This document shows positions 810 to 14,343 of a stretch of DNA of 64,000 bases, piece after piece. The notes beneath the pieces are model-generated. The model made no database searches, had not been told where the DNA came from, and saw nothing but the letters and a program-made list of their open reading frames with translations. Origin of the DNA: a phage. The stretch's first letter is position 1, and each line of letters begins with the position of its first letter. The translations under genes and the position numbers were made by a program. The stretch lies in the NCBI GenBank assembly GCA_018027755.1, contig GCA_018027755.1_4098.1; one strand, given 5' to 3'.

Positions 810-842
810 ACATACATCAACTACTGAATAGGAATCAAAACA

Positions 843-1070
843 ATGGCTATCGTAATCGCTTATGTAACTGGTACTACTGGCACTTCTTCTACTGTTGCTG
901 TAATTACCAACAAGAAAGGTGCGGAATTACATTCTGCAATGGATACCTGGGCGGTAAATGAGTTCGGTCAGTGGGCAAGTGTAGCATATGTTGAAACCTA
1001 TCAAGTGCCAACCATTAGCTTAACGGATCTCGGTGTAGATCGTATCCTTTGCCTGGATGAATTAAATTAA
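843..1070 (+). CDS. hypothetical protein (75 aa)
   Basis: track ORF; promoter upstream; SD AGGAA. Confidence 0.65.
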   Translation: MAIVIAYVTGTTGTSSTVAVITNKKGAELHSAMDTWAVNEFGQWASVAYVETYQVPTISLTDLGVDRILCLDELN

Positions 1071-1077
1071 AAAAGTA

Positions 1078-1139
1078 CTTGCAAAGTAAGTTGGATAAAG
1101 TATAATACATTACATCAAGGGGAGAAAATGGTTCTCCCC
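1078..1139 (+). promoter_or_regulatory. promoter plus conserved 5' leader hairpin
   Basis: CTTGCA-17-TATAAT, then GGGGAGAA-loop-TTCTCCCC hairpin at 1119-1139. Confidence 0.65.
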
Positions 1140-1157
1140 ACTAAGAGGAAACTAAAA

Positions 1158-1301
1158 ATGAAAACTTGTCAATGTGGTAAAAAATCTATTACTGGTTTGA
1201 AACGGGGCGTTGCTCTTTGTCAGTATCACTATAACGCTCAGGTATGGGGTAAAGAGTGGGCCGACCAGGTGGAAGCAGTAAAGAAAGCAAAAAGTAAGTA
1301 A
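1158..1301 (+). CDS. hypothetical small Cys-rich protein (47 aa)
   Basis: ATG after AAGAGGAA SD; CxC...C pattern; below track cutoff. Confidence 0.5.
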   Translation: MKTCQCGKKSITGLKRGVALCQYHYNAQVWGKEWADQVEAVKKAKSK

Positions 1302-1320
1302 AATTATTATCACAGTACTA

Positions 1321-1349
1321 TTGACATAGATTGATAGTACTGGCATAAT
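1321..1349 (+). promoter_or_regulatory. sigma70-like promoter (repeated promoter type)
   Basis: TTGACA-17-CATAAT with AGTACTGG; near-identical copies at 1615, 4474, 12669. Confidence 0.65.
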
Positions 1350-1382
1350 AGATTTTATCAAGACAACTAAGAGGAAACAATA

Positions 1383-1595
1383 ATGGCTATCATCACAAAA
1401 ATCAAAGTAAACAAATCACTGGTTAAGCTGGAAGAAGTGAAAGAAGGTTATAAAGTATCGTGGTGCGGCATGTATCGGATTTTTACAGATGTTGACGATG
1501 CAATCAATTACTACACTGACACGGTAAAAAACTTTGTTCGTGCTGATGTGGTTATGGCAGTGGCAACACACAAAGCATCGAAAGAAAGTAAGTAA
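1383..1595 (+). CDS. hypothetical protein (70 aa), MAII-start paralog
   Basis: track ORF; SD AAGAGGAA; N-terminus resembles 4530 gene. Confidence 0.7.
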   Translation: MAIITKIKVNKSLVKLEEVKEGYKVSWCGMYRIFTDVDDAINYYTDTVKNFVRADVVMAVATHKASKESK

Positions 1596-1614
1596 AAATA
1601 TTATCACAGTACTA

Positions 1615-1643
1615 TTGACATAGTTTGATAGTACTGGCATAAT
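1615..1643 (+). promoter_or_regulatory. sigma70-like promoter
   Basis: TTGACA-17-CATAAT, AGTACTGG before -10. Confidence 0.65.
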
Positions 1644-1676
1644 AGATTTTATCAAGACAACTAAGAGGAAATTAAA

Positions 1677-2021
1677 ATGGCTAATATCAACACTATCGCA
1701 AAACAAAATATCAACCTGTCTTCTGTTGAAGTTGTACATATTGCCGCTCGGCGTTGGTTCCAGGCTTCATATGGTAACACTTATTTCTCTTTAAGTGTAG
1801 ACGTAGAAATTGATGGTAATTTTATTGAAGTAGTAAACGTGCCGTTCCAATATGGATACGGGGATCACTTTGACACTGTAGCAATGGAAGAATTTAGCAA
1901 GGTTATTAATATGGAAGATAAAGAGTTTTTACGCGGTTCTTATCTTTCCCGTTTTTGCCGTGACAATAATATCACTGTTTACAGTTCGGTAACTGATGTT
2001 AAACGCAAAAAAGATCTTTAA
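1677..2021 (+). CDS. hypothetical protein (114 aa), paralog of 8202 gene
   Basis: track ORF; SD AAGAGGAA; shares GNTY...YGYG and C-terminal DVKRKKD with 8202-8525. Confidence 0.7.
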   Translation: MANINTIAKQNINLSSVEVVHIAARRWFQASYGNTYFSLSVDVEIDGNFIEVVNVPFQYGYGDHFDTVAMEEFSKVINMEDKEFLRGSYLSRFCRDNNITVYSSVTDVKRKKDL

Positions 2022-2101
2022 TTAGCTTTACTTTATGCAGATACTTTGATATAGTGTCTGCATAGGGGAAAGAAATTAAATTAACTTAAGAGGATCGTAT
2101 A

Positions 2102-2371
2102 ATGAAAAATATCAGTACTTTAATCGATGCAGGTACTCATGTTCGTCGGTCTATGGTTGCAACCAGTACTACAAAACAAGTAGCGAGCGGTTATCTTGTA
2201 TTTGTGCACGATGGTAAACTCCTGGAACGTTCAATCAATTTTGATGTTAAAAACAATTGCCGTTTTATTATCTTTCGCCGTGAACAATATAAGATCGACA
2301 TTCCAGCGAAGCCCATTAGCGGTGCGTACAACGTGCAATCATTGTTTGAACGTCAACCATACACCTATTAA
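2102..2371 (+). CDS. hypothetical protein (89 aa)
   Basis: track ORF; SD AAGAGGA. Confidence 0.65.
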   Translation: MKNISTLIDAGTHVRRSMVATSTTKQVASGYLVFVHDGKLLERSINFDVKNNCRFIIFRREQYKIDIPAKPISGAYNVQSLFERQPYTY

Positions 2372-2422
2372 TCAAAACATCGTTAGCGGTCGATTTAGGC
2401 CGCTTATATTGGGGATTATACC

Positions 2423-2695
2423 ATGAACGTTAATCAAGTACTGAATGAGATCGAAAGCATCATTAAACCGATGAAGCGTACTGATGCTATGTTAACACCG
2501 GAAGAATGCCGCCTTTATGAGCGTTACAGCGTCGAACAAGTCCAGGCAATGGCTATGGCTACCCCAGCCGTTAAACAGCCTGAGAACGCGTTACAGGACG
2601 TTACAGGGGATTATATCATCAATCCAGTACTAGGGAAGATGGCTGCAATCACCGAAGATCAACAAGACTACTTAAGCCAGTACTTAAAAGGTTAA
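2423..2695 (+). CDS. hypothetical protein (90 aa)
   Basis: track ORF; weak SD. Confidence 0.55.
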   Translation: MNVNQVLNEIESIIKPMKRTDAMLTPEECRLYERYSVEQVQAMAMATPAVKQPENALQDVTGDYIINPVLGKMAAITEDQQDYLSQYLKG

Positions 2696-2700
2696 TTAAT

Positions 2701-2910
2701 ATGCTTACTGTACAGGATAAGATCGACATCTTAAAGGTTAATATGTATGTGATTGATGCAGTACCTGGTAAAGTATTTGCATACGATGACAGTACTGTAA
2801 GCGATTTCTACTATAGCCAGGACGTGGGGGATCTTTCTGTACAGTCGGTTATTGAAAACGTAGTTAATGCAGCGTATGAGCATTTACTTTCAAATAGTAC
2901 TTGCAATTAG
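2701..2910 (+). CDS. hypothetical protein (69 aa)
   Basis: track ORF; 5 nt after upstream stop. Confidence 0.55.
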   Translation: MLTVQDKIDILKVNMYVIDAVPGKVFAYDDSTVSDFYYSQDVGDLSVQSVIENVVNAAYEHLLSNSTCN

Positions 2911-2960
2911 TTTTTAAACGCGTATAATGTTTTACATGAAGGGGAGAAATGATTCTCCCC
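2900..2960 (+). promoter_or_regulatory. promoter plus 5' leader hairpin
   Basis: CTTGCA-17-TATAAT; GGGGAGAAATGATTCTCCCC hairpin. Confidence 0.65.
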
Positions 2961-2979
2961 ACTAATTAAGGAATATGAA

Positions 2980-3126
2980 ATGAAAGCATCAAAAAAGAGT
3001 AATACTAAGAAAGCACGTTCAACCTTAGATGGGGTATTCCCTTTACGTTTCGTTGATGAAGTAGTTTCCTACCCGCCGGGCCTTACTCCTGAGATGGTAG
3101 AAAGTTTGCGTAAATCTAAAAAATAG
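2980..3126 (+). CDS. hypothetical small basic protein (48 aa)
   Basis: ATG after AAGGAA SD downstream of hairpin; below track cutoff. Confidence 0.5.
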   Translation: MKASKKSNTKKARSTLDGVFPLRFVDEVVSYPPGLTPEMVESLRKSKK

Positions 3127-3128
3127 TA

Positions 3129-3189
3129 CTTGCAATTAGTTTTCAGTACTGTATAATAGTTTACATGAAGGGGAGAAATGATTCTCCCC
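3129..3189 (+). promoter_or_regulatory. promoter plus 5' leader hairpin
   Basis: CTTGCA-17-TATAAT; GGGGAGAAATGATTCTCCCC hairpin. Confidence 0.65.
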
Positions 3190-3207
3190 AATAACAGGAG
3201 AAACAAA

Positions 3208-3360
3208 ATGAAACAATACAACGCTCGGTTTGATGTTACTATCGGTAACGGCAAAGGTCAATTCTCTTTCAGTACTCGCCGCAGTTATACAGAAAACTTC
3301 CTGCGTAATTGTGCACTGACCGCCGCACAAATTAAACATTACTTCCAGGCTAAAAAATGA
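3208..3360 (+). CDS. hypothetical protein (50 aa)
   Basis: ATG 7 nt after AGGAGA SD; track ORF 3178-3360 trimmed because its 5' part runs through the hairpin. Confidence 0.6.
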   Translation: MKQYNARFDVTIGNGKGQFSFSTRRSYTENFLRNCALTAAQIKHYFQAKK

Positions 3361-3446
3361 AATCATTAGCTTATTACAGTTCAGCGGTGATCGGTGCATT
3401 GATCGCGGCATTGTTAGTAACCTATCTATTCTTTATGGTGATTTAA
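3357..3446 (+). CDS. small hydrophobic peptide (29 aa), single predicted TM helix
   Basis: ATGA overlap with upstream stop; hydrophobic sequence. Confidence 0.4.
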   Translation: MKSLAYYSSAVIGALIAALLVTYLFFMVI

Positions 3447-3581
3447 ATGAATCCTAACGGTTTAATTTACAGTACTCCTAAAACGAAAGCAGATAAAGCG
3501 AAAGCACGTAAAGCGAAAGTAAAGGAGTACATTAAGCAAGGCATGACGCGAAAGGCGGCAGTACTGAAAGCTAAAAAATAA
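3447..3581 (+). CDS. hypothetical small basic protein (44 aa)
   Basis: ATG immediately after upstream stop; Lys/Ala-rich. Confidence 0.4.
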   Translation: MNPNGLIYSTPKTKADKAKARKAKVKEYIKQGMTRKAAVLKAKK

Positions 3582-3589
3582 ATGAAAAA

Positions 3590-3676
3590 AGTGGTTGACT
3601 TCGGTCAGCCATTTTGCTATTATATATTCATTGAGAGATAGCTCACTAGCCCACCGGGTGCATAAGTGTATCTATT
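3590..3676 (+). repeat. repeated intergenic element, copy 1 (embedded promoter)
   Basis: TTGACT-17-TATTAT, then conserved core AGCCCACCGGGTGCATAAGTGTATC. Confidence 0.6.
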
Positions 3677-3795
3677 ATATAAGTATTGAGTACTGAAAAC
3701 TATTTTTAAAAAGTACTTGCAAACTATCTCAATTGGCGTATAATGTTTTACATCGCAAGGGGAAACGGTTTCCCCTGGTAATAAGGAAACAAATC

Positions 3796-4137
3796 ATGAC
3801 TATCTCAATTGCTCAATCTAACTTTGAAAATGAAATCATCGCCCAGGCACTGCGTTTAAATGATGGTCGGGCCGAAATTAATTACGGTTTCAATTCAGGC
3901 GGTTGTGAAAACTATCAGTACTTTGTAACGGCTGATGGCGGTGTCCTGGGTATCAATACAGTTATTGTAAACATCCAAAAAATTAATTTCAATGATCCAG
4001 ACGATAGCCAGTTTTACATTGTAGGCGTAGACGTGAACTATGAGGATGACTCACTAACTGATGATCACACTGGCGAGCGGTTAGAAAGTGCATACGGTGA
4101 AGATGATTATCAGTCCGGTCCAGAAGATTTCGAATAA
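3796..4137 (+). CDS. hypothetical acidic protein (113 aa)
   Basis: ATG after AAGGAAA SD downstream of hairpin; track ORF trimmed. Confidence 0.65.
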   Translation: MTISIAQSNFENEIIAQALRLNDGRAEINYGFNSGGCENYQYFVTADGGVLGINTVIVNIQKINFNDPDDSQFYIVGVDVNYEDDSLTDDHTGERLESAYGEDDYQSGPEDFE

Positions 4138-4151
4138 TATAAAAAAATAGT

Positions 4152-4211
4152 TTGACAATAGATTATAGTACTGTATAATAGTTTACATCAAGGGGAGAAA
4201 AACTTCTCCCC
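4152..4211 (+). promoter_or_regulatory. promoter plus 5' leader hairpin
   Basis: TTGACA-16-TATAAT; GGGGAGAA...TTCTCCCC hairpin. Confidence 0.65.
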
Positions 4212-4233
4212 ACTAACAGAGAGAGAAAACAAA

Positions 4234-4446
4234 ATGGCTAATATCCGGTCGAAATTAAAAAATGCAAAACAAGTTTTATTTTCAGATCATGAATACTTTA
4301 ATAAAGATATTACAGGAGTTACAAGTATCAAGGAAGTAAAAGAAAAAACCGGTGTTTTGTGTGATGTGCGATTAGTTGGGACATTTGGGAATAACGTGCT
4401 ATATCGCTGCGGTGATTACAATTTTACACTGACTATCATTAACTAA
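4234..4446 (+). CDS. hypothetical protein (70 aa)
   Basis: track ORF; purine-rich SD. Confidence 0.65.
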   Translation: MANIRSKLKNAKQVLFSDHEYFNKDITGVTSIKEVKEKTGVLCDVRLVGTFGNNVLYRCGDYNFTLTIIN

Positions 4447-4529
4447 AAATATTATCACAGTACTATTGACATAGTTTGATAGTACTGACATAATAACTTT
4501 TATCAACTACACTACTAAGGAATTAAAAA

Positions 4530-4709
4530 ATGGCTATCATCGCAAAAACTGAAATCGTTGGTCTGGATTCTATCATCATGACGTTTGAAGATCAAAAAGG
4601 TATGTATGTAGTTTCCTATGGTGATTATGTTCGGGAGTATGAAACGGTAGACGAAGCCTTTGAAAGTTATATTCGCCAGGTGAATAAAGCATACGACGAC
4701 TACCGCTAA
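4530..4709 (+). CDS. hypothetical protein (59 aa), MAII-start paralog
   Basis: ATG after TAAGGAA SD; promoter repeat upstream; resembles 1383 gene; below track cutoff. Confidence 0.55.
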   Translation: MAIIAKTEIVGLDSIIMTFEDQKGMYVVSYGDYVREYETVDEAFESYIRQVNKAYDDYR

Positions 4710-4801
4710 AATATATTACCAGTACTATTAAATCTATTGACAACGTTTGATAGTACTGTATAATAAGTTTTATAAACAGTAATTAACTTAACCTAAGAGA
4801 G

Positions 4802-4954
4802 AGAAACAAAATGATCGCACTGGATTCATTCATCGACGCAGTACTGGCAAAAACTGGCGAGGATCTGACCGCAGAACAATACGCGATGATCGAGCAATGT
4901 CAGCAAAACGGTAAATCGGTGAAAGATACTGTTAAGATTATCCGCAAGATGTAA
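4802..4954 (+). CDS. hypothetical protein (50 aa)
   Basis: ATG after AGAGAGAGAAA; promoter upstream; E. coli-like codons. Confidence 0.5.
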   Translation, partial: RNKMIALDSFIDAVLAKTGEDLTAEQYAMIEQCQQNGKSVKDTVKIIRKM

Positions 4955-4960
4955 TATTAT

Positions 4961-4988
4961 AGCCCACTGGTTAACGCTGGTGGGCTTT
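4961..4988 (+). terminator. terminator-like hairpin
   Basis: stem AGCCCAC/GTGGGCT then short T-run. Confidence 0.45.
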
Positions 4989-5059
4989 AATCATTTACCC
5001 TATACAATGCCAGTACTAAACCGTTTATCTCGTTAGAATGCGTTACAGGACGTTTAACA

Positions 5060-5257
5060 ATGATTAGCATGAAATCAGTACAAAAACAAATAGAAACATT
5101 ATCAAAAATTAAACGTAAACAGTACTCCTTAGAATATACAATCAATGGTAACTATCATCTAATGAAAGAAAATAATTTTATAGTCATTGATGAATCATTG
5201 CAAATCATTAGTATAGTACTGAAAGCATTAATCAATGACAGAAAAAAATTAAAATAA
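5060..5257 (+). CDS. hypothetical protein (65 aa), doubtful
   Basis: track ORF; no clear SD; AT-rich. Confidence 0.3.
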   Translation: MISMKSVQKQIETLSKIKRKQYSLEYTINGNYHLMKENNFIVIDESLQIISIVLKALINDRKKLK

Positions 5258-5363
5258 TCTATTGACAATATCATCCAGTACTGGCATAATACTTACATCA
5301 AGACGAGAACGTCACTAACCCATAGGGTGCACAAATGTAACTATATAATATCGTTCAATAAAT

Positions 5364-5423
5364 GATCAAAAAAGTACTGGATCAATTTAACATAAGGAGT
5401 ATAATTCTGATCAATTCTTGATC
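5364..5423 (+). promoter_or_regulatory. cluster of four GATC sites in TGATCAA context
   Basis: GATC at 5364, 5380, 5409, 5420; upstream of TraR-like gene. Confidence 0.4.
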
Positions 5424-5586
5424 AAAGGCAATATACGCAGTTGAATTTATATAGACAATACAAAGGCGTTACTATCCGTGGTAATGCTGGTGGATATGTA
5501 GTATCATATGGTTTGAATAAGATTAGCACTAGTAGTATTATTGTAGCATTACAGTACTATAGTATTTTTATAATGAGGTTAAAATA

Positions 5587-5844
5587 ATGGCAGTAGGATA
5601 CGCGAAAGACGGGGCCGAACAAGACGAGATTCACGCAGTGATTCAGGCCGCCGTTAACCACGCTAGAAAGCAAATTAACGCACAAAGAGAATCACTGGTA
5701 CATTGCCTCGACTGCGGCGATAAAATCCCTGAGAATCGACGCCAGGCCGTTATAGGGTGCATGTATTGTATTACTTGCCAGGAGGATCATGATAGTACTT
5801 TTAAAAGAGATCCGCGTAATTGTTGGCATAGATCTATGAGATAA
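5587..5844 (+). CDS. TraR/DksA-family C4 zinc-finger protein
   Basis: CLDCGDKIPENRR...CMYCITCQ matches TraR/DksA zinc-finger signature. Confidence 0.7.
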   Translation: MAVGYAKDGAEQDEIHAVIQAAVNHARKQINAQRESLVHCLDCGDKIPENRRQAVIGCMYCITCQEDHDSTFKRDPRNCWHRSMR

Positions 5845-5907
5845 AAAGTATTGACAGTACTGAAAGATAGTGTATAATGTTTTATATCTTAACTGAGGAT
5901 AGTAATC

Positions 5908-6264
5908 ATGGGAATACAACATATCACGCGTACTACTGACAATGGAGAGATCACTGGTTATCAGGTACAGGGCAAAGTAGCACAATTGCAGTACTGGTTT
6001 GTTAAACGTGGAATCATTGCACCGGATCTTGATTATGACCGTGTAGCGTTTATTGATTCTCTTTATGTTGATCCTGATAGTCGGGGCAATGGTGAAGGTA
6101 ACGAATTAATGAATGCCTTTATTGATGCCGCCGGTGATTCAGATTGTATCATCTTAGAATGCGATACGGGAGAAGATAACGCCTTTAATCTTAAAGAATG
6201 GTACGAAGGTTTCGGATTCGAGGTATTGATAGATAGTGAATATCCTATCATGATTTTATCATAG
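5908..6264 (+). CDS. small GNAT-like acetyltransferase (tentative)
   Basis: LYVDPDSRGNGEGNELM resembles GNAT motif A; SD GAGGA. Confidence 0.45.
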   Translation: MGIQHITRTTDNGEITGYQVQGKVAQLQYWFVKRGIIAPDLDYDRVAFIDSLYVDPDSRGNGEGNELMNAFIDAAGDSDCIILECDTGEDNAFNLKEWYEGFGFEVLIDSEYPIMILS

Positions 6265-6342
6265 TACTTGCATTTAGTTTTCAGTACTGTTATAGTACTT
6301 ACATCAAGGGGAAACGTCTTCCCCTACTAAGAGGAAATGAAA

Positions 6343-6531
6343 ATGGAAAACTTATCAAGTATTTTAGTACAAGATGATTTTGGCAATCCTGGTAGTGCTA
6401 TCATTGTTCGGGGTAATAAAGCAACGTTTGTTATTGCTGGTGGGCCAGTACAGCGTAGCATTAAAAATAATGCTGTTACCATTAATAATGTACGCTATCG
6501 CTTAGATAAAGAATTGATTCATAAACTTTAA
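6343..6531 (+). CDS. hypothetical protein (62 aa)
   Basis: second ATG chosen for SD spacing (track start 6337). Confidence 0.6.
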   Translation: MENLSSILVQDDFGNPGSAIIVRGNKATFVIAGGPVQRSIKNNAVTINNVRYRLDKELIHKL

Positions 6532-6538
6532 AAAGTAT

Positions 6539-6598
6539 TTGACAATAGATTATAGTGCTGTATAATAAGTTACATGAAGGGGTGAAATGATTCTCCCC
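6539..6598 (+). promoter_or_regulatory. promoter plus 5' leader hairpin
   Basis: TTGACA-16-TATAAT; GGGGTGAAATGATTCTCCCC hairpin. Confidence 0.65.
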
Positions 6599-6615
6599 AC
6601 TAAGAGGAAAGAAAA

Positions 6616-6828
6616 ATGCAAGGTCAACTAATCGTTCGTAAATGGTCTGATACTAACGAAAAACCGTGGGATGTACAATACATCGGACCGGATGGGGTAT
6701 CACGTTATCAGCCTGGCGTAACGCATAGTACTGAGCAATTCGCAAACGCTCACCGCGAACGCCTGTTAGAATCCATGAAACAGGGATTCTGTGAAAAATT
6801 CATTCAAGATCATTGGCTGAAAGATTAA
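6616..6828 (+). CDS. hypothetical protein (70 aa)
   Basis: track ORF; SD AAGAGGAAA. Confidence 0.7.
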   Translation: MQGQLIVRKWSDTNEKPWDVQYIGPDGVSRYQPGVTHSTEQFANAHRERLLESMKQGFCEKFIQDHWLKD

Positions 6829-6845
6829 TATAAGGAGTACAGCTT

Positions 6846-6938
6846 ATGCAAATGAATCCGATGATTATTGTTTTAGCTGTACTTATGATCATTCATGCAA
6901 TAGTAGAAGTATTAACGCAATCAGGAGTAATAAAATGA
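6846..6938 (+). CDS. small hydrophobic peptide (30 aa)
   Basis: ATG after TAAGGAG SD; hydrophobic; first of three coupled small ORFs. Confidence 0.45.
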   Translation: MQMNPMIIVLAVLMIIHAIVEVLTQSGVIK

Positions 6939-7108
6939 TTCAAGTAGAATTATCAGTACTGAAAGATCTGTTTTATCGGTTAGGTACTACTGGCGAGTAT
7001 CCTAAAAGTGATACCGCAAAACTTTTTGTATCACTCGACTTATGGCAACGCGAACAATTAGTAATGTCCTGGCGTAAAGGTAAAGCAGATAGCGAGGTGA
7101 AAGCATGA
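6935..7108 (+). CDS. hypothetical protein (57 aa)
   Basis: ATGA overlap with upstream ORF. Confidence 0.45.
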   Translation: MIQVELSVLKDLFYRLGTTGEYPKSDTAKLFVSLDLWQREQLVMSWRKGKADSEVKA

Positions 7109-7254
7109 AAGAATTCTTATTCGAAGTAGTGTTTCAAGGTGTCGGTAGTAACCAACTGATTCGCTCAAGTGGTTACAATGTTAACCAGGCATGGAATAAC
7201 ATTAAACAAATGTACCCGAACGCTATCACCTATCGCAACCCGAAACAAGTTTAA
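7105..7254 (+). CDS. hypothetical protein (49 aa)
   Basis: ATGA overlap with upstream ORF. Confidence 0.45.
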   Translation: MKEFLFEVVFQGVGSNQLIRSSGYNVNQAWNNIKQMYPNAITYRNPKQV

Positions 7255-7261
7255 AAATAAT

Positions 7262-7346
7262 TGAAAAAGGGATTGACACCGGTCAGTCCCTTTGCTATTA
7301 TATACGCATAGAAACAAATCAGCCCACAGGGTGCATAAATGTATCT
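7262..7346 (+). repeat. repeated intergenic element, copy 2
   Basis: TTGACA-17-TATTAT plus core AGCCCACAGGGTGCATAAATGTATC. Confidence 0.6.
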
Positions 7347-7569
7347 ATTGTTTGCTGGTGGCTAGTACTGAAAACTATTTTTAAAAAAGTACTTGCATTG
7401 TACTTAGAATCAAGTATAATGTTTTACATCAGGACGGGGAACGAAACAAGTAACCCCGTTAAGTAGTCCAGGAGTAAGACATACGAAAAACTCCCCTGAT
7501 AAAATAGTTTGACAATAGAAATTAAACGAGTATAATACTTACATCAACCACTGATAAGGAAACATAAAA

Positions 7570-7845
7570 ATGCGGATTCTACTGACAGCTAACGAAATCG
7601 AACAAGTACTGACTACTAACCTGGAAGACTGGAAACGTGAAGCAGATATCCAGGCGGTTCAATGGCTTAACGATAAGTTAACGCCGGATGACTTAAGCAA
7701 GATTGTAGATCCTCAATTCTACGAAGATATTCACGACACCGCGTTAAGCGTCGAGGATGTACTTGATAAGCACTACATTGATACTGATTTACATGTTTAC
7801 GGTCGTAAAAACTTTATCACTATTCACGACATTTACAATACTTAA
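7570..7845 (+). CDS. hypothetical protein (91 aa)
   Basis: track ORF; SD TAAGGAAA; promoter upstream. Confidence 0.7.
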   Translation: MRILLTANEIEQVLTTNLEDWKREADIQAVQWLNDKLTPDDLSKIVDPQFYEDIHDTALSVEDVLDKHYIDTDLHVYGRKNFITIHDIYNT

Positions 7846-7932
7846 GTATTGACAAAGTATCTTAGTACTGTATAATAGTTTACATCAAGGCGGGGAAATG
7901 GTTCCCCTCCTAACTAAAAGAGAGAAATTAAA

Positions 7933-8115
7933 ATGGCTAAGTGCACTATCTGTAAGAAAGAAATCGTATTAGTTCCAAGTGCCCGTGAACGTGCCGCTCG
8001 GTTCGGTGGCAAAGCGTCAGACTATACAAAAATGTTTACTGCCCATGCAGATTGCCAGGTAGCAAAACGTTCACAAGAAAGCGTAGAATTAATGCGTAAA
8101 CTTTCCAAAAAATAA
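7933..8115 (+). CDS. hypothetical small Cys-containing protein (60 aa)
   Basis: track ORF; promoter and hairpin upstream. Confidence 0.65.
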   Translation: MAKCTICKKEIVLVPSARERAARFGGKASDYTKMFTAHADCQVAKRSQESVELMRKLSKK

Positions 8116-8201
8116 GTATTGACAAAGTATCTTAGTACTGTATAATAGTTTACATCAAGTGAGGGGAAACGGTTCCCCTCCTAACAGAGAGAGAAATAAA
8201 A

Positions 8202-8525
8202 ATGGCTATGATCCTTACCCAGAAAGTGGAATTGAAAATTGTAACCTCCTTTGACATTAAAGTTAATCGCTGGACTGATCGGAACGGCAATACTTACCAC
8301 TCTTGCTACGTGTCTGCATTGATTGGTGATCGTTGGGAAGACCTGGGACACGAAACTTTTACATACGGTTACGGTACGCAAGGCGAATACACGGGCTTGG
8401 AGATCATTAAAGAAACCGTTATAGGTTTCAACCCGAAAGAAAAAGTTATTCACCGCATCGAAAAAGAGATTAACAAAGAAATAACAGTTCGCTACTACGA
8501 TGTAAAACGTAAGAAAGACATGTAA
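8202..8525 (+). CDS. hypothetical protein (107 aa), paralog of 1677 gene
   Basis: track ORF; shares GNTY...YGYG and DVKRKKD with 1677-2021. Confidence 0.7.
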   Translation: MAMILTQKVELKIVTSFDIKVNRWTDRNGNTYHSCYVSALIGDRWEDLGHETFTYGYGTQGEYTGLEIIKETVIGFNPKEKVIHRIEKEINKEITVRYYDVKRKKDM

Positions 8526-8620
8526 TAGAATCCATTTAAAGTACTATTTGACATTACACAGATAGTACTTTATAATAGACTCTAACTTGTAGTACTAACT
8601 CAACTAATAGGATGTATACC

Positions 8621-9016
8621 ATGATTACTAAATTCTACGCTACCCGTGAAGCTGCCCGTATTGTTGCACGCGAGGAAGGAGCAGCATTTAAAGACATGGG
8701 AACGACAGCACCGAAAGGTCAACGCTGGGCCGTACAGTTCAAAGAAATCTCTGATATTGTGAATTCACCTGAGCCAGTACTGACAGCAGCAGAACTAAAA
8801 CGAGCGGATATGCTGGCGGCAATACTTGACGCTCAAGATGAATTTATCGCTGATTCTGATATCAAAGTACAGGTAAACCACACCGCATGGACTCACGCGG
8901 ATCACCTGGCAAACCTTAAGCGTCCAAGTGAACTGATTCGCAACCAGAAAGAGATCCGACACGACCGTAAGGGTAATCGTGTAACAGTATACAGTAAACG
9001 CCGCCAGGTTATCTAA
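8621..9016 (+). CDS. hypothetical protein (131 aa)
   Basis: ATG with AGGA 8 nt upstream; track start 8612 alternative. Confidence 0.65.
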   Translation: MITKFYATREAARIVAREEGAAFKDMGTTAPKGQRWAVQFKEISDIVNSPEPVLTAAELKRADMLAAILDAQDEFIADSDIKVQVNHTAWTHADHLANLKRPSELIRNQKEIRHDRKGNRVTVYSKRRQVI

Positions 9017-9038
9017 TAACTTGCAGTACTAACAACAC

Positions 9039-9063
9039 GGCGGGATCAGTTCCCGCCTTTTTT
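9039..9063 (+). terminator. rho-independent terminator
   Basis: stem GGCGGGA/TCCCGCC then T-run. Confidence 0.8.
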
Positions 9064-9077
9064 ATAGGACAAACAAA

Positions 9078-9332
9078 ATGATTAAGGTTCAACTATATAA
9101 AGATAACATCTTACGGGTACACTATAAAGCACCGAAGAGAATCATCACAAAGGCCGTACAGCTTGCTAATGAGTTTATTAATGGTAACCTATTACCAAGG
9201 AAGTTAAGCAACGGGAAACTGCGTGTAATCGACGTGGACACTAACAACAGGATAGTAATCGAGAACACAGGAAAAATAAACCTTTATGAACACCAACAAT
9301 ATAATAAGAAAATAAAACTAATATCACGTTGA
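9078..9332 (+). CDS. hypothetical basic protein (84 aa)
   Basis: track ORF; weak SD. Confidence 0.5.
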   Translation: MIKVQLYKDNILRVHYKAPKRIITKAVQLANEFINGNLLPRKLSNGKLRVIDVDTNNRIVIENTGKINLYEHQQYNKKIKLISR

Positions 9333-9385
9333 CAGTACTCAAATGTTTTAGTACTATGTACACATACCAACACGGGAGAAACAAA

Positions 9386-9604
9386 ATGAAATTATCTAAA
9401 ATCGAAAAAACAACTATTGATGTAGCAGTTAAGCACGGTTATACCTTTCGTAATGATTCACATTTTACCAATTTTCAACAAGGACAGAGAACTATTAAAA
9501 AACTAATTGACAAAGGCTTATTAGTTAAAGTAGATAACGGTAACGGTGTGGAGTATCAACCAACACAGGACGCATTTTATTTTAAGAAATATAATATTAT
9601 CTAA
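9386..9604 (+). CDS. hypothetical protein (72 aa)
   Basis: ATG after GGGAGAAACAAA; promoter TTGACA-17-TACTAT at 9331; track ORF trimmed. Confidence 0.6.
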   Translation: MKLSKIEKTTIDVAVKHGYTFRNDSHFTNFQQGQRTIKKLIDKGLLVKVDNGNGVEYQPTQDAFYFKKYNII

Positions 9605-9662
9605 TTGACAGTACTCAAATGTTTTAGTACTATATGTACATACCAACACGGGGAAAAACAAA

Positions 9663-9905
9663 ATGATTACTTTAGAAAAACGTATCAAAGAAACTACATC
9701 GCTGGTGGAATTGTTAACAGTACTCAAATGTAAAACAACACCATTCAGCACGCCGGACTTTATTAATATGGTTGATGTTAATGGTCGCTATCGTATCACG
9801 GTCGAACAAGGAGCGGCGAAAGTATTCAGTACTAAAAACACTAAGGAAGTGATCCACGCCGTTAATGTTAAAAAAGTAGTTGCCATTGATAGTAAAGTAC
9901 TGTAA
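9663..9905 (+). CDS. hypothetical protein (80 aa)
   Basis: track ORF; duplicated copy of the 9331 promoter at 9604. Confidence 0.6.
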   Translation: MITLEKRIKETTSLVELLTVLKCKTTPFSTPDFINMVDVNGRYRITVEQGAAKVFSTKNTKEVIHAVNVKKVVAIDSKVL

Positions 9906-9936
9906 GATAGTTTCATTAACTCAAGGAGTAAATGCA

Positions 9937-10521
9937 ATGCGTAATTATACTAAATTCATCCGTACACTGTCAGAAATGGAAACCAACAAAGAGATCCTTT
10001 CAGCTTGTCGGTTAGCTGGCCTGGAGATCATCGGTGCTGGTTCTTCCCGTATAGTATTCGCTTTAAATGATCGGTTAGTGATTAAGGTCGCGAATTGTGA
10101 TGCGGGTGTCGAACAAAATGAAACTGAATGTAAGGTATGGAATTTTTTAGACTATGACCGCCCTCAGTTGAAACAGTACTTTGCAAAGGTGCATATGCAT
10201 TTATGCGATCCTGATAATATGTTTATCGTTATGGATCGGTTGAGTACTGCAAGCAAAGGCAGTGTGAAGCACGTTAACGCGTGCAATGAATTAAAGTACA
10301 ATATTAAACGTAATGCAATCGAACGCCAGCACCGCTTTGCTGATGCACTACAACACGTTGATGATACATTATCAACACTAACGATAAGAGATATCAGAAA
10401 ACAGAATATCGGCCAGGATCGTAATGGCCTTATTAAAGTACTTGATTACGGTTTAACCCGCAATATCTGGAATCAGTACTATAAAAAGCGTGATGTGGCA
10501 GCAAGTAAGGTAACACGATAA
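9937..10521 (+). CDS. Ser/Thr protein-kinase-like protein
   Basis: IGAGSSRIVF Gly-loop, VIKVA lysine, IRDIRKQNIG catalytic loop, LDYG (DFG-like); SD AAGGAG. Confidence 0.55.
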   Translation: MRNYTKFIRTLSEMETNKEILSACRLAGLEIIGAGSSRIVFALNDRLVIKVANCDAGVEQNETECKVWNFLDYDRPQLKQYFAKVHMHLCDPDNMFIVMDRLSTASKGSVKHVNACNELKYNIKRNAIERQHRFADALQHVDDTLSTLTIRDIRKQNIGQDRNGLIKVLDYGLTRNIWNQYYKKRDVAASKVTR

Positions 10522-10529
10522 AAAAGATT

Positions 10530-10620
10530 AAAAAAGGGATTGACTCCGGTCAGTCCCTTTGCTATTATATATCCATTGAGAGATAACTCACTGACCCATA
10601 GGGTGCGGAAGTGTATCTAT
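10530..10620 (+). repeat. repeated intergenic element, copy 3
   Basis: TTGACT-17-TATTAT plus conserved core. Confidence 0.6.
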
Positions 10621-10742
10621 TATATAAGTATTCAGTACTGAAAACTATTTTTAAAAAAGTACTTGCATTGTACTTAGAATCAAGTATAATGTTTTATATC
10701 GAGAGGGGGAAATGGTTCTCCCTGGCAATAAGGAATAAAATC

Positions 10743-10964
10743 ATGACTACAATGACTTGCATTTACGCTTCCAATCGTCTGAATGATGCGGCCTTTAATG
10801 TTGATTCAGAATATCAATGTTATCGGGATGAAAATAAAAAAGTTTTTGTAGTTGATAATAATGGTTTCCATATTGAATTACAATCCGGCTTCACTGGTGT
10901 TGATGGTAAATCAGTATGGGGCGTACAGGATGATAAAGGTACATATCATTTTAAACGTAATTAA
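10743..10964 (+). CDS. hypothetical protein (73 aa)
   Basis: ATG after TAAGGAATAAAATC; track ORF trimmed past hairpin. Confidence 0.65.
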   Translation: MTTMTCIYASNRLNDAAFNVDSEYQCYRDENKKVFVVDNNGFHIELQSGFTGVDGKSVWGVQDDKGTYHFKRN

Positions 10965-11048
10965 GTATTTGACAAAGTATCTTAGTACTGTATAATAGTT
11001 TACATCAAGGGGAGAATAGTTCTCCCCGATACTAAAAGGAATAAAATC

Positions 11049-11456
11049 ATGACTACTACCAATCAAGCTCGGAACATCACCAACGATAAAAATCATGCTG
11101 CAATGGTCGCTGGTTACATTGAAGCTATGCAATTCAGTACTGTACACAATGAGAACGGCGAATACCTGGAAGATTATGAATTATCAGAGCAAGCCCATCA
11201 AGCGGCAGTGATTGCATGTTCACGTTTCCTTGCTGTACATGGTGAAGATATGGAAACAGTACAAAAACACCATAATCCTGATTATACTTATAGTCATGCA
11301 GGTCATGATCTCTTTCTTACTCGCGAAGGTCACGGCACTGGTTTTTGGGATCGTGATATCGGTCACTATGATGATATATTCACTAAGTACTGCGAAGAAA
11401 TCAACGTTTGCGATCCCTATGTAGGCGATGATAATCTAATCTATATGGGCGAATAA
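11049..11456 (+). CDS. hypothetical protein (135 aa)
   Basis: track ORF; SD AAAGGAA; promoter and hairpin upstream. Confidence 0.7.
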   Translation: MTTTNQARNITNDKNHAAMVAGYIEAMQFSTVHNENGEYLEDYELSEQAHQAAVIACSRFLAVHGEDMETVQKHHNPDYTYSHAGHDLFLTREGHGTGFWDRDIGHYDDIFTKYCEEINVCDPYVGDDNLIYMGE

Positions 11457-11544
11457 AAGTATTTGACAAAGTATATCAGTACTGTATAATAGTTTACATC
11501 AAGGGGAGAATAGTTCTCCCCCACCAATAAAAGGAAACAAAATT

Positions 11545-11817
11545 ATGTCCAGCTACTCCGCTACTATGATCATTAAAGATATGAACGGTAATCCTACTTC
11601 TGCTGGTGGATCATTTGGAAACATTAATTTAGATGGGCGGTTATCCATGCAATCAGCCATCGATACAGCGAAAGAAGTTTTTAAGAATGAATGTACTGTA
11701 AGCAAGCTGGATTATATGGGATTCGCTATCGAGAAAACTAATCGTTTTGTGAACTACAAAAATCCACTGATGATTGATACTAACCTGAAAGCTAACGAAG
11801 TGGAATACTTATTATGA
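11545..11817 (+). CDS. hypothetical protein (90 aa)
   Basis: track ORF; SD AAAGGAAA. Confidence 0.7.
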   Translation: MSSYSATMIIKDMNGNPTSAGGSFGNINLDGRLSMQSAIDTAKEVFKNECTVSKLDYMGFAIEKTNRFVNYKNPLMIDTNLKANEVEYLL

Positions 11818-12005
11818 CAGTTGAAGAAGTTAAAAAAGTACTGGCAGTACTACGCTATCATAATCATTGCAAGGTGAAGAATGATCCTGATTATCTCGAT
11901 TCATCCCTGGAAGAGGATACACTACAAGCAATAAGCCATATGCAAAAAATGCTTAAGCGTATGACCGAAAAGAATAGACCGGACTATATCGGAAATAAAA
12001 TTTAA
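11814..12005 (+). CDS. hypothetical protein (63 aa)
   Basis: track ORF; ATGA overlap with upstream gene. Confidence 0.6.
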   Translation: MTVEEVKKVLAVLRYHNHCKVKNDPDYLDSSLEEDTLQAISHMQKMLKRMTEKNRPDYIGNKI

Positions 12006-12091
12006 AAAGTACTTGCATTGTAGTTAGATTAACGTATAATGTTTTATATCGAGAGGGGAAATGGTTTCCCCTCAAGTCCAGGAGATACACC

Positions 12092-12355
12092 ATGAACACT
12101 ATCGAAATCACTATCAATGCACACGTATACGACAACGTAGTACTGCAAACTACTATGACCGCTAATGATACCAGTACTTTGCGGAATACTGTTATTAGTG
12201 CCGTATGTGCTGCAATCGGTGATGTTGCCCTGGAAAATGCAGAACATATCAACAACGGTTTCACTATGTGCAAACGTGATAACGCAAAACATATCATCGT
12301 GGAAGGTTACGGCGGTGTAGAATTTAATGTTTATATGAAAAAAGTATTTGCATAA
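12092..12355 (+). CDS. hypothetical protein (87 aa)
   Basis: track ORF; SD CAGGAGA. Confidence 0.7.
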   Translation: MNTIEITINAHVYDNVVLQTTMTANDTSTLRNTVISAVCAAIGDVALENAEHINNGFTMCKRDNAKHIIVEGYGGVEFNVYMKKVFA

Positions 12356-12422
12356 TAACTAAAACAAAGTATAATGTTTTGCATAGGGGGAGATATCCTC
12401 CCCCACTAAAAGGAGTAATAAA

Positions 12423-12647
12423 ATGGCTAACTTTGATGAACTGATGCGGGAAGTAGCTACCCTGGCAGAAGAGAAGAAATCATTCGATTCTATCTATAAC
12501 ACCTCTTACCGTGATTCAGTACTGGCATGTACTCAGGATCAAAAAGATGAACTAATCGCCACATATCATGAAGCATGGAAGTACTACCGCCAATGGGAGA
12601 AAGAAGAAAGCGAGTCTACCATCAACGGCATCAATAATCTAATCTAA
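12423..12647 (+). CDS. hypothetical protein (74 aa)
   Basis: track ORF; SD AAAGGAG. Confidence 0.7.
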   Translation: MANFDELMREVATLAEEKKSFDSIYNTSYRDSVLACTQDQKDELIATYHEAWKYYRQWEKEESESTINGINNLI

Positions 12648-12723
12648 AAGTTTTATTTCAGTACTATTGACATAGCTTGATAGTACTGATGTAATAACTT
12701 TACTAACTACAAGGGGAAACATA

Positions 12724-12981
12724 ATGGAACAGTTCACACAATATCGGGTAAATCCTCAAGCTATGGCCTACGTAGAAGACCATAAAACGTTACCAGTACT
12801 GCAACCAGTTAAAGGCCATATCTATCGTGCAATGTCGTGGAGTACGGCCCAGGATGGCTATAAAACCGTAGCTGTCGGTATGTACTGCGGTAATGGTGAA
12901 TGGTTTGATCCAAATAATCCGGTCGCCGTTGACAGTACTGAAAAAATGAAATGGGCCGACTACATCGAAGATATTTCATAA
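12724..12981 (+). CDS. hypothetical protein (85 aa)
   Basis: track ORF; repeated promoter type upstream. Confidence 0.65.
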   Translation: MEQFTQYRVNPQAMAYVEDHKTLPVLQPVKGHIYRAMSWSTAQDGYKTVAVGMYCGNGEWFDPNNPVAVDSTEKMKWADYIEDIS

Positions 12982-13071
12982 AAACTATTTGACAGTACTA
13001 ACCAGTAATGTATAATGTTTTACATAGAGCGGGGGAATAGTTCTCCCGCCAATAGTTTGGAGTAAAACATT

Positions 13072-13272
13072 ATGTCTATCGCTATCGCCCTGGTTGAAGT
13101 ACTGAAAGAAGCTAAAGCCAACCTTATCGATGTACAGATTAAGGAATTGCAAAACGGCTTAATCGGCTGCACTTGTACCGCTGGCGGTGCGGCAGACTAT
13201 CGAGAACACGAATCACTCGAATCACTGGTTCGGTATCTTACCATGATCGTTGATGATTGGAGAATCATCTAA
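13072..13272 (+). CDS. hypothetical protein (66 aa)
   Basis: track ORF; SD TGGAGT. Confidence 0.65.
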   Translation: MSIAIALVEVLKEAKANLIDVQIKELQNGLIGCTCTAGGAADYREHESLESLVRYLTMIVDDWRII

Positions 13273-13284
13273 CAAAAAAAGAAT

Positions 13285-13370
13285 AAAAAAAGGGATTGAC
13301 TCCGGTCAGTCCCTTTGCTATTATATACGCATAGACAAAAACTAGCCCACAGGGTGCATAAGTGTATCCA
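13285..13370 (+). repeat. repeated intergenic element, copy 4
   Basis: TTGACT-17-TATTAT plus core AGCCCACAGGGTGCATAAGTGTATC. Confidence 0.6.
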
Positions 13371-13519
13371 AAATATATAGTTAATAACGGTGAGTAACTA
13401 TCTGCTGGTGGAGTGAAAACTATTAATAAAAAAAGTATTGACAAAGTATATCAGTACTGCGATAATGTATCTCGTAGGGCGGCAATGGTGCGACGGCCCA
13501 CAAAGTTAGGAGATTCAAA

Positions 13520-13852
13520 ATGACTACTTCAATCGCTATCGTTAAAGCTTTCATCCGTACTAATGTTTCCTCTGTATTCATCGACGGCCTCGACCGTAAC
13601 GTAGAATACTCAATCATTATCGCACAAACGGCAAACGGTTCTCGGTACATCCTTAATGATAGTGAAGCAAATCACTACTACTTCACTAAAGCCACTGGCT
13701 TTAAACGCATCGATGCTGATGTAGTATACGCTAAGATGAATAAGCTGGTAGATAAGATTAACGCTAAAGGTACTATAGATTTACAGTACTGGACCGAAAC
13801 CGATCCAGAATATGGATCTCACCGCTACCTGAATCCAGGTATTAAAATGTAA
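13520..13852 (+). CDS. hypothetical protein (110 aa)
   Basis: track ORF; SD TAGGAGA. Confidence 0.7.
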   Translation: MTTSIAIVKAFIRTNVSSVFIDGLDRNVEYSIIIAQTANGSRYILNDSEANHYYFTKATGFKRIDADVVYAKMNKLVDKINAKGTIDLQYWTETDPEYGSHRYLNPGIKM

Positions 13853-13941
13853 AAAGTACTTGCATAGTACTTAGAATCAAGTATAATGTTTTACATAGAG
13901 AGGGGGAAATGGTTCTCCCTCCTAAATTAAGGAGTTTTATC

Positions 13942-14343
13942 ATGACCTTCTCAATCAATTCCTTCGCTGACGTTTTAGTACTGGCTCGGACTTTCGGTAA
14001 AGATGCACTGGAGTACGCTGTAAGTAATGGTACTATCCAACCGGAACAGTGCCGCATCATTGGAAACTGCAAACGTTGGGCGGTATCCAATACTATTGCA
14101 CTGGAAAACTTCCACGATGGCAACAATGAATATTCTGTTGATGTAGTATTCGAAGCCGTTGATCTCGGCGGTATCTATAATACTAACCTGAATGATGTGC
14201 GTATCGTTCGCACGGGGTTCGGTGCTTATGATGTATCTATTCGTGAAGCTATGAACACCGGATACATTAGCAAGGACTTACTTGCTCACATCATGCAGCT
14301 GTGTACGGAACGTAACGAAGCACGTACTATCTTAGGGCTGTAA
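13942..14343 (+). CDS. hypothetical protein (133 aa)
   Basis: ATG after TAAGGAG SD; track ORF trimmed. Confidence 0.7.
   Translation: MTFSINSFADVLVLARTFGKDALEYAVSNGTIQPEQCRIIGNCKRWAVSNTIALENFHDGNNEYSVDVVFEAVDLGGIYNTNLNDVRIVRTGFGAYDVSIREAMNTGYISKDLLAHIMQLCTERNEARTILGL

Follow-up and report, generated by a model that had tools for sequence, protein, structure and literature searches.

Why do so many small early genes of a large phage begin with nearly the same stem-loop? We examined this question in a stretch of 64,000 nucleotides (nt) of phage DNA (GenBank assembly GCA_018027755.1, contig GCA_018027755.1_4098.1), the whole of which is called the window here. An initial annotation had noted about 18 leaders with a nearly identical hairpin between the -10 element and the Shine-Dalgarno sequence, and had suggested that the hairpin is a shared site of post-transcriptional control or processing. 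We found that the base pairing of this hairpin is under selection in the sense-strand RNA, which points to a post-transcriptional role.

The leader hairpin and its base pairing

The exact motif GGGGAGAA-N3-12-TTCTCCCC was present six times in the window, against 0.00 expected from 100 shuffles. When variant stems were allowed, the hairpin scan and the promoter-anchored scan revealed 16 canonical and two aberrant copies, all on the plus strand between 1119 and 13921. This agreed with the number of leaders given in the initial annotation, the example coordinates of which were correct to within 1-3 nt. The stem consists of 7-10 base pairs (bp) between a G-rich and a C-rich arm with a GGGG/CCCC core, two A-U pairs lie beside a loop of 3-7 nt, and the predicted folding energies lie between about -12 and -16 kcal/mol. 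All copies begin 10-15 nt (mostly 12 nt) past the -10 hexamer and end 18-23 nt upstream of the ATG, which bears out the earlier description of a structured element at a fixed site between the -10 element and the Shine-Dalgarno sequence. A covariance model built from 27 copies was searched on the window and nine related loci, where it gave 90 matches, all 90 of them on the transcribed (plus) strand; the same search found no copy in the window between 14 and 64 kb.

The stem was variable in sequence. Among 82 distinct leaders, we found at least 12 stem variants, including GGGGAGAA/TTCTCCCC, AGGGGAAA/TTTCCCCT, GAGGGGAA/TTCCCCTC, GCGGGGGAA/TTCTCCCGC and GTGGGGAA/TTCCCCAC, as well as GCGGGAA/TTCCCGC, GGGGGAG/CTCCCCC, GGGCGGCA/TGCCGCTC and others. 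The loops of 3-7 nt had at least 10 sequences, with AUGG, UAG, ACGG, AUGA, ACAUC, AACAAC, GAUAUC, GUGUU and CAC among them. In the diverged copies of the phages Munch, EJP2, nepoznato and UPEC06, most stem positions were replaced and the pairing was kept. The stem scoring penalised every mismatch equally, so that G.U was not favoured, and the internal non-Watson-Crick positions comprised 14 G.T, no A.C and seven others. This asymmetry marks the sense strand, that is, the RNA, because selection on the duplex only should yield G.T and A.C equally.

A covariance analysis of the copies, which the initial annotation had proposed as a check, gave covariation above all 500 shuffles. In the loop-anchored alignment of the arms (A2), covariation was 0.479 compared with 0.189 ± 0.018 after shuffling (0/500), the cells with double changes numbered 57 versus 18 in shuffled arms, and slid controls gave 0.13-0.18. 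The covariance-model alignment (A4, 77 distinct rows) showed a value of 0.377 versus 0.161 after shuffling (0/500), with slid controls of 0.05-0.13. In A4, one pair was GC in 29 rows, AU in 24 and GU in 18, which corresponds to the classic AU-GU-GC path, and the outer pairs included GC, AU, UA and CG. The loop-closing A-U pairs were nearly invariant (73/77 and 63/77), and the G/C core was conserved. Additionally, where arms differed at exactly two positions, these were the partners of one base pair in 7 of 35 cases, compared with 5.9% expected (p = 0.004). MAFFT alignment of 76 leaders followed by RNAalifold misaligned the unequal arms and returned a poor consensus (-1.95 kcal/mol), and A2 and A4 were used instead.

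The individual copies were located as follows. The stem GGGGAGAA/TTCTCCCC encloses the loop aatgg at 1119-1139 (-35 at 1079-1084, -10 at 1101-1106, ATG at 1158), with a fold of -13.8 kcal/mol and a z-score of -2.5. The same stem encloses atga at 2941-2960 (-10 at 2923-2928, ATG at 2981) and at 3170-3189 (-10 at 3152-3157, ATG at 3208), both of which were found by the motif, hairpin, promoter and covariance-model scans. It is also present with the loop aaac at 4192-4211 (-10 at 4174-4179, ATG at 4234) and with the loop tag at 11009-11027 (-10 at 10991-10996, ATG at 11049) and 11503-11521 (-10 at 11485-11490, ATG at 11545). A variant stem, AGGGGAAA-cgg-TTTCCCCT, lies at 3758-3776 (-10 at 3739-3744, ATG at 3796), and AGGGGAA-acgtc-TTCCCCT was found at 6307-6325 behind a TATAGT -10 element (6291-6296; ATG at 6343). 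The copy at 6579-6598, GGGGTGAA-atga-TTCTCCCC, contains one U.U mismatch (-10 at 6561-6566, ATG at 6616). Those at 7889-7910 (GGCGGGGAA-atgg-TTCCCCTCC, core 7892-7907; -10 at 7871-7876, ATG at 7933) and 8161-8180 (GAGGGGAA-acgg-TTCCCCTC; -10 at 8141-8146, ATG at 8202) are followed by AGGGGGAA-atgg-TTCTCCCT at 10704-10723, which includes a G.U pair (-10 at 10685-10690, ATG at 10743).

Further downstream, GAGGGGAAA-tgg-TTTCCCCTC is located at 12053-12073 (-10 at 12035-12040, ATG at 12092), and GGGGGAG-atatc-CTCCCCC at 12386-12404 begins only 10 nt past its -10 element (12370-12375; ATG at 12423). The last two canonical copies each have a G.U pair and an altered second pair, which is C-G in GCGGGGGAA-tag-TTCTCCCGC at 13029-13049 (-10 at 13011-13016, ATG at 13072) and A-U in GAGGGGGAA-atgg-TTCTCCCTC at 13900-13921 (-10 at 13882-13887, ATG at 13942; fold -15.9 kcal/mol). 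The two remaining copies depart from this architecture. One, at about 13477-13499 behind a -10 element at 13461-13466, is a degenerate copy of a second stem type, GGGCGGCA-atgg-TGC..., and the GGGCGGCA stem is typical of Phapecoctavirus and Vequintavirinae leaders. The other, GACGGGG-(14-nt loop)-CCCCGTT at 7433-7460, has a promoter upstream (7393-7420) and no open reading frame (ORF) downstream. From this ORF-less consensus promoter, a transcript of about 80 nt (7426-7508, plus strand) would adopt a closed two-hairpin fold of -21 kcal/mol (z = -3.2), and the region is about 90% identical in the Vequintavirinae phage A73. This transcript of about 75-80 nt, which includes the aberrant copy, is a candidate early small non-coding RNA.

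An AUG was present within the loop of 8 of the 16 canonical hairpins. In two of these copies (1119 and 3170), the AUG shares the reading frame of the annotated gene start and would give a 10-codon N-terminal extension; a third AUG, in the copy at 2941, opens a mini-ORF of six codons. A conserved upstream ORF or alternative start was rejected, as other copies have ACGG, ATAG or AAAC, and the loop AUG is probably incidental.

Early leaders as exchangeable cassettes

The hairpin is carried on a one-directional array of early promoters. Between 1 and 14.4 kb, the promoter scan identified about 34 near-consensus sigma-70 promoters on the plus strand (array 547-13887), and behind each of them lie a short leader and a small ORF. 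The promoters consist of TTGACA or TTGCAA, a spacer of 16-17 bp and TATAAT, with an A/T-rich AAAAAGTA tract upstream. To compare leaders with and without the hairpin, we collected 182 promoters from the window and the nine related loci (10 loci, three phage lineages), which were picked regardless of structure. The folding energy of the first 40 transcribed nt was bimodal: 87 promoters were at or below -9 kcal/mol, 81 were above -4 kcal/mol and only 14 fell between. The hairpin was present on only about half of the early promoters. The distance from the -10 box to the ATG was 52 nt in hairpin leaders versus 35 nt in leaders without the hairpin, a difference of 17 nt, and the alignment of homologous leaders revealed the hairpin as a clean indel of about 21 nt between TACATCAA, a conserved region at the start, and C(C/T)ACT...AGGAA.

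The two leader classes corresponded largely to promoter type. Across the 10 loci, 72 of 97 TATAAT promoters with a 16-bp spacer were followed by the hairpin, compared with 10 of 70 promoters of other types, including the 17-bp TGnCATAAT type. Within the window, 14 of the 16 canonical copies lie behind a TATAAT promoter with a 16-bp spacer, and the 17-bp TGnCATAAT promoters at 781, 1321, 1615, 4466 and 5262 are without the hairpin. The leader of the gene encoding MAIV... includes the hairpin in A73 and PBECO4 but not at 781 in the window. As the same gene can have either leader, the hairpin is an optional, swappable module rather than a gene-specific signal, and it looks like a generic module and not like a gene-specific switch.

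The window itself is assigned by nucleotide similarity to an Asteriusvirus-type jumbo coliphage of the 121Q/PBECO4 group. A megablast search with bases 1000-9000 matched 93 phage records, and the top matches were the Asteriusvirus-type jumbo coliphages SHEFM2K, vB_Ec-M-J, phAPEC6, 121Q and PBECO4, with 90-96% identity in mosaic, broken alignments. About 40 Asteriusvirus genomes contain the 93-bp cassette at 90-96% identity, as do the Vequintavirinae (about 140 kb) A73, W70, UPEC06, LTH01 and A7_1, and more distant forms are present in Salmonella phage Munch, Klebsiella phage fENko-Kae01 and Phapecoctavirus nepoznato. The loci of relatives that share the cassette hold their own diverged hairpin leaders. 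Not only promoters but also early genes are shared, with 70-86% nucleotide identity to the Vequintavirinae of about 140 kb and to Phapecoctavirus of about 150 kb; the shared segments are 773-1297, 1707-2024, 3877-4103, 4217-4510, 7588-7846, 11494-11813 and 13939-14251. Since whole early genes are shared, a common pool of early-gene cassettes serves large coliphages that are unrelated to one another.

We also determined where the mosaic breaks. Breakpoints were taken as the ends of high-identity segments between the window and 121Q, PBECO4 and SD-6_S16. Promoter-leader modules cover 25% of the region, and 40 of 52 breakpoints were inside them, compared with 13 expected; some were in or beside the hairpin (query ends 2949-2960 and 11051). 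Judged from these alignments, the unit of promoter, hairpin and Shine-Dalgarno sequence behaves as a mobile regulatory cassette that has been duplicated, moved from gene to gene and traded among Asteriusvirus-like jumbo phages, Vequintavirinae and Phapecoctavirus. The initial annotation had described the hairpin in many unrelated small genes. This holds for the genes themselves, but their promoter-leader modules are homologous, being copies of a single cassette. The similarity of the hairpin copies is therefore due at least partly, and perhaps largely, to common descent of a mobile promoter-leader cassette, a point absent from that annotation. The bare palindrome was present in at least 120 IMG/VR contigs, nearly all as single, context-free matches, and the covariance model recognised only 121Q among the first 100 of these contigs. 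As the contigs do not have the leader context, the bare motif is not diagnostic.

In relatives with determined ends, the small-gene array is located in a direct terminal repeat of about 20 kb. The repeat of fENko-Kae01 is annotated at 1-19,736 with the array inside it, and that of Sharanji is 20,668 bp long (PMC11895373). The recognised products of the array include a DksA/TraR zinc-finger protein, a GNAT acetyltransferase and a weakly kinase-like protein, and the 1-14.4 kb array is a typical host-takeover early region. The kinase-like ORF (9937-10521) gave a weak, sub-threshold protein-kinase match (Pkinase, E = 0.002), and its counterpart in Munch and fENko-Kae01 is annotated as a putative protein kinase. 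The T7 kinase gp0.7 modifies RNase E, and by analogy a tie between the kinase-like ORF and the control of mRNA stability is conceivable. Past the promoter array, tandem small paralogous ORFs without their own promoters lie at 14.9-16 kb (14860-16000), and about 30 back-to-back ORFs of 150-207 amino acids on the plus strand at 23200-49400 probably form a multigene family.

A separate signal was observed in the palindrome AGTACT, which occurs 225 times in the window versus 21 expected (10.5-fold); the next most enriched 6-bp palindrome reached 2.1-fold. It is found in promoter spacers (for example, 800-805, 1340-1345 and 4170-4175) and, more generally, both in non-coding DNA and in each of the three codon phases. 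For the early regions of Munch, EJP2, 121Q, fENko-Kae01, PBECO4 and SD-6_S16, an excess of 15-20-fold was observed, whereas Vequintavirinae and Phapecoctavirus loci with the same cassettes were not enriched (0.3-1.6-fold). This distribution indicates a lineage-specific DNA-level signal, and a literature search on the AGTACT excess found no paper.

Possible functions of the hairpin

Several known types of element were compared with the hairpin. By its sequence, the hairpin is not an intrinsic (Rho-independent) terminator, as no U-tract follows it, with only 1-3 T in the 8 nt past the stem, and the terminator scan flagged none of the copies, yet it flagged true terminators at 366-387 and 9039-9057 and four hairpins that enclose a -35 element. 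The predicted accessibility of the Shine-Dalgarno sequence was 0.75 with the hairpin and 0.74 with the hairpin deleted. Removal of only the 5′ arm lowered this value from 0.75 to 0.60, but a composition-preserving shuffle of the 3′ arm likewise gave 0.59; since the shuffled arm equals the real one, the 3′ arm has no specific complementarity to the Shine-Dalgarno sequence, and an anti-Shine-Dalgarno switch was rejected. Stems of 7-10 bp are too short for RNase III, and a site for this enzyme was rejected as well. A protein operator read through its loop, of the boxB, MS2 or RegA type, does not agree with loops of 3-7 nt and at least 10 sequences. Rfam gave no match at the gathering threshold over the 64 kb, and bases 1-15000 gave four weak, unrelated matches (E = 0.06-0.53), none of which was on a hairpin. 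The tRNA scan returned nothing relevant to the hairpin.

The reading that we favour, tentatively and short of calling it probable, is that the hairpin acts in cis as a generic stabiliser or insulator of the 5′ end, by analogy with the stabilising leaders compared below. If the first transcribed nucleotide is the A of the conserved CAT, located 8 nt past the -10 element, the stem would lie 3-7 nt from the 5′ end, and the hairpin would span about +4 to +27 of its own transcript. With this start, the unpaired 5′ tail would be 3 nt where the hairpin begins 10 nt past the -10 element and about 5-7 nt where it begins 12-14 nt past it. The Shine-Dalgarno region downstream of a hairpin so placed is predicted to be 75% unpaired. 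Base pairing at the 5′ end blocks the 5′-end-dependent pathway of RNase E (reviewed in PMC3997798, citing Emory 1992, Bouvet 1992 and Arnold 1998). A 5′-proximal stem could in this way slow the 5′-end-dependent decay of AU-rich messages, through the access of RppH or RNase E or through scanning. Being self-folding, the hairpin might additionally act as an insulator, such that the leader would fold independently of whichever gene cassette adjoins it.

A number of observations weigh against the stabiliser reading. The transcript start was inferred from promoter geometry, with the A of CAT as +1. In work on ompA, a tail of 2-4 nt was reportedly optimal for 5′-terminal protection, and the predicted 3-7 nt is at or beyond this range. 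Half of the early promoters are without the hairpin and orthologues occur with either leader, so that any benefit is quantitative. Stabilisation explains neither the constant polarity of the arms, with a purine/G-rich 5′ arm and a pyrimidine/C-rich 3′ arm, nor the nearly invariant GAA/UUC top of the stem; both features could be due to shared ancestry or to recognition by a factor. The association with TATAAT promoters of 16-bp spacer (72/97 versus 10/70) may hint at a link at the level of transcription. Finally, the covariation statistics rest on related, non-independent copies and on alignments that were anchored on the structure (A2 and A4).

Recognition by a factor would be central if the hairpin were a regulon-wide RNA operator, at which a phage or host RNA-binding protein or endoribonuclease shuts off, processes or stabilises the hairpin-bearing early mRNAs and so defines two classes, comparable to T4 RegB and RegA or lambda N-boxB. 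The fixed position with the purine-rich arm invariably at the 5′ side, the near-invariance of the loop-closing A-U pairs and the conserved G/C core, the discrete promoter classes with and without the hairpin, and the presence in the 5′ arm of GGAG, the target tetranucleotide of T4 RegB, are all consistent with such an operator. However, the loop is conserved neither in sequence nor in length, at least 12 stem sequences are tolerated, one gene may have either leader type, many variants are without GGAG (for example, AGGGGAAA, GCGGGAA and GGGCGGCA), and no candidate for the binding protein was identified; we regard this operator as unlikely, if credible. The suggestion made in the initial annotation is supported in part. 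The selection on sense-RNA pairing supports its post-transcriptional side, a shared control or processing site is conjectural, and the variable loop of 3-7 nt and the optional presence on orthologous genes count against a sequence-specific regulator and a gene-specific switch, respectively. We give somewhat less credence to a more far-reaching proposal, in which the stem-loop would serve as a common RNA "address tag" and divide the early transcripts of large enterobacterial phages from three families into two classes at the post-transcriptional level. The G-rich helix near the 5′ end would then be read by a dedicated factor of phage or host, which would time the stabilisation, processing or shut-off of about half of the host-takeover genes, and the tag would spread horizontally with the promoter.

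The remaining explanations place the hairpin at the level of transcription or of DNA. A transcriptional attenuator or pause, as proposed for the promoter-early stem-loop (PeSL) cassettes of T4-type phages, would cut read-through from upstream cassettes and damp its own strong promoter, and a phage factor might relieve it. The GGGG...CCCC stem-loops of RB49 PeSL lowered lacZ as much as a strong terminator (PMC2839356), few canonical terminators are present between the cassettes of the window, and the hairpin goes with the most consensus-like promoters. We nevertheless consider an attenuator improbable: the missing U-tract and the silent terminator scan speak against it, termination inside the transcript of its own promoter would defeat the cassette, and separate composite terminator/promoter hairpins exist in the same array (3588, 7266, 10533 and 13289). 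The clustering of breakpoints in promoter-leader modules (40/52 versus 13), several of them in or beside the hairpin, would fit a DNA element at which cassettes are shuffled, either a hotspot of recombination or the target of a recombinase, with the RNA structure incidental; the PeSL authors mapped one crossover to the loop of a stem-loop and speculated that GGGG...CCCC is a protein target (PMC2839356). But any repeated module of about 100 bp should show breakpoints, and hairpin-less modules have them too. Selection for pairing on one strand (G.T 14 versus A.C 0) is not expected from duplex recognition or a cruciform, and the compensatory changes keep the pairing and not the sequence, which together make a recombination site quite improbable. 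The same asymmetry marks one strand against a palindromic DNA operator at +5 to +25, through which a dimeric repressor would shut off early transcription. An inverted repeat just downstream of the promoter could hold a protein that acts as a roadblock; yet arm complementarity rather than half-site sequence is conserved, with at least 12 half-site variants, and the arm spacing varies by 4 nt (3-7 nt), so that this operator is barely credible. It is also very improbable that the hairpin is a non-functional passenger kept only through recent cassette duplication. Many copies in the window are near-identical and their flanks (TACATCAA and ACTAA...AGGA) are conserved too, but the diverged copies of Munch, EJP2, nepoznato and UPEC06 still pair, covariation is far above the shuffled and slid controls, and the folding energies are bimodal with few intermediates.

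The most likely function of the hairpin is a conventional one. If the stabiliser or insulator reading is correct, the cassette would be a natural "standard part" of strong promoter, self-folding 5′ hairpin and ribosome-binding site that gives predictable expression before any small host-takeover gene, a design that synthetic biology reached as well with its 5′ hairpin insulators. Unrelated large coliphages would use a common pool of early-gene cassettes. The hairpin is an RNA motif absent from Rfam that covaries clearly and is represented by at least 77 distinct sequences, and it could be used to annotate early promoters and 5′ untranslated regions (UTRs) in poorly annotated genomes.

Comparison with known systems

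In a literature search, this hairpin was not described in any paper, and data on transcript start sites turned up for none of Asteriusvirus, Vequintavirinae and Phapecoctavirus. Promoters are listed in the publications on rV5, CBB, Sharanji and other Asteriusvirus phages, but no leader hairpin is mentioned there. The closest described arrangement is the PeSL cassette of the T4-type phages RB49/phi1, PST and nt-1 (Arbiol et al. 2010, PMC2839356; Comeau et al. 2014, PMC4122927), the stem-loops of which were interpreted as terminators by their authors (PMC2839356). The initial annotation did not refer to this close precedent. Neighbouring PeSL elements reportedly recombine to release mini-circles. 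In both systems, an A/T-rich region precedes a strong sigma-70 early promoter, and the stem-loop is stable and of the GGGG...CCCC type; the published PeSL stems also contain G-T pairs. In both, the 3′ end consists of the Shine-Dalgarno sequence and the ATG of a small ORFan, many copies are found in a hyperplastic early region, and the breakpoints of indels or replacements fall at the elements. In contrast, direct inspection of RB49 showed stems that occupy the space between the -35 and -10 elements, overlap these elements or lie upstream of them, outside their own transcript, whereas the present hairpin is at a fixed position downstream of the predicted start, in its own 5′ UTR, and is without a U-tract. 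We found no sequence similarity between RB49 and the present cassette. The hosts of the cassettes also differ, as PeSL belongs to Straboviridae and the present cassette to Asteriusvirus-like jumbo phages, Vequintavirinae and Stephanstirmvirinae. The hairpin is thus a PeSL-related variant and not a member, given its position, the absence of a terminator and the lack of similarity to RB49. If the proposed function is correct, the concept of mobile PeSL-type cassettes would no longer be confined to T4-type phages and would also cover Asteriusvirus-like jumbo phages, Vequintavirinae and Stephanstirmvirinae.

The four hairpins flagged by the terminator scan were also compared with PeSL. They have 12-bp stems, AAAGGGATTGAC-tccg-GTCAGTCCCTTT, at 3588-3623, 7266-7301, 10533-10568 and 13289-13324, and each encloses a TTGAC(T/A) -35 element and is followed by GCTATTAT. 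After each of them, about 80-100 nt of conserved non-coding DNA with AGCCCAC.GGGTGCATAA precede a hairpin-bearing promoter. By their sequence and arrangement, the four are composite terminator/promoters that are PeSL-like in the strict sense.

The lambdoid nut/boxB, MS2, T4 gp43 and RegA operators resemble the leader hairpin in being small hairpins near the 5′ end, on early transcripts and behind strong promoters. However, these operators require that the loop be conserved, and a genome contains one or two of them, whereas here the loop is variable and about 16 copies are present per terminal repeat.

Stem-loops that stabilise the 5′ end are known from hairpin 1 of the ompA 5′ UTR, from papA and from the T7 gene 10 leader GGGAGACCACAACGGUUUCCCUC. 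There were clear differences from these systems. The ompA, papA and T7 gene 10 hairpins are experimentally proven elements of single genes, whereas the present element is a multi-copy family known from its sequence. Its predicted unpaired 5′ tail of 3-7 nt exceeds the tails of ompA and T7. Unlike the transcripts considered here, T7 gene 10 RNA is a product of T7 RNA polymerase, and its start lies inside the stem. The copy at 3758 (AGGGGAAACGGTTTCCCCT) resembles the T7 gene 10 stem, a likeness that we judged coincidental. The predicted architecture is similar nonetheless: a short, stable hairpin would lie here, too, near the 5′ end of the mRNA, with an unstructured Shine-Dalgarno region downstream. 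As in ompA and T7 gene 10, pairing matters rather than sequence, which is apparent here from compensatory changes, G.U intermediates and covariation. The ompA, papA and T7 gene 10 hairpins act in cis and can be moved between genes, and the same is proposed for the leader hairpin of these early cassettes.

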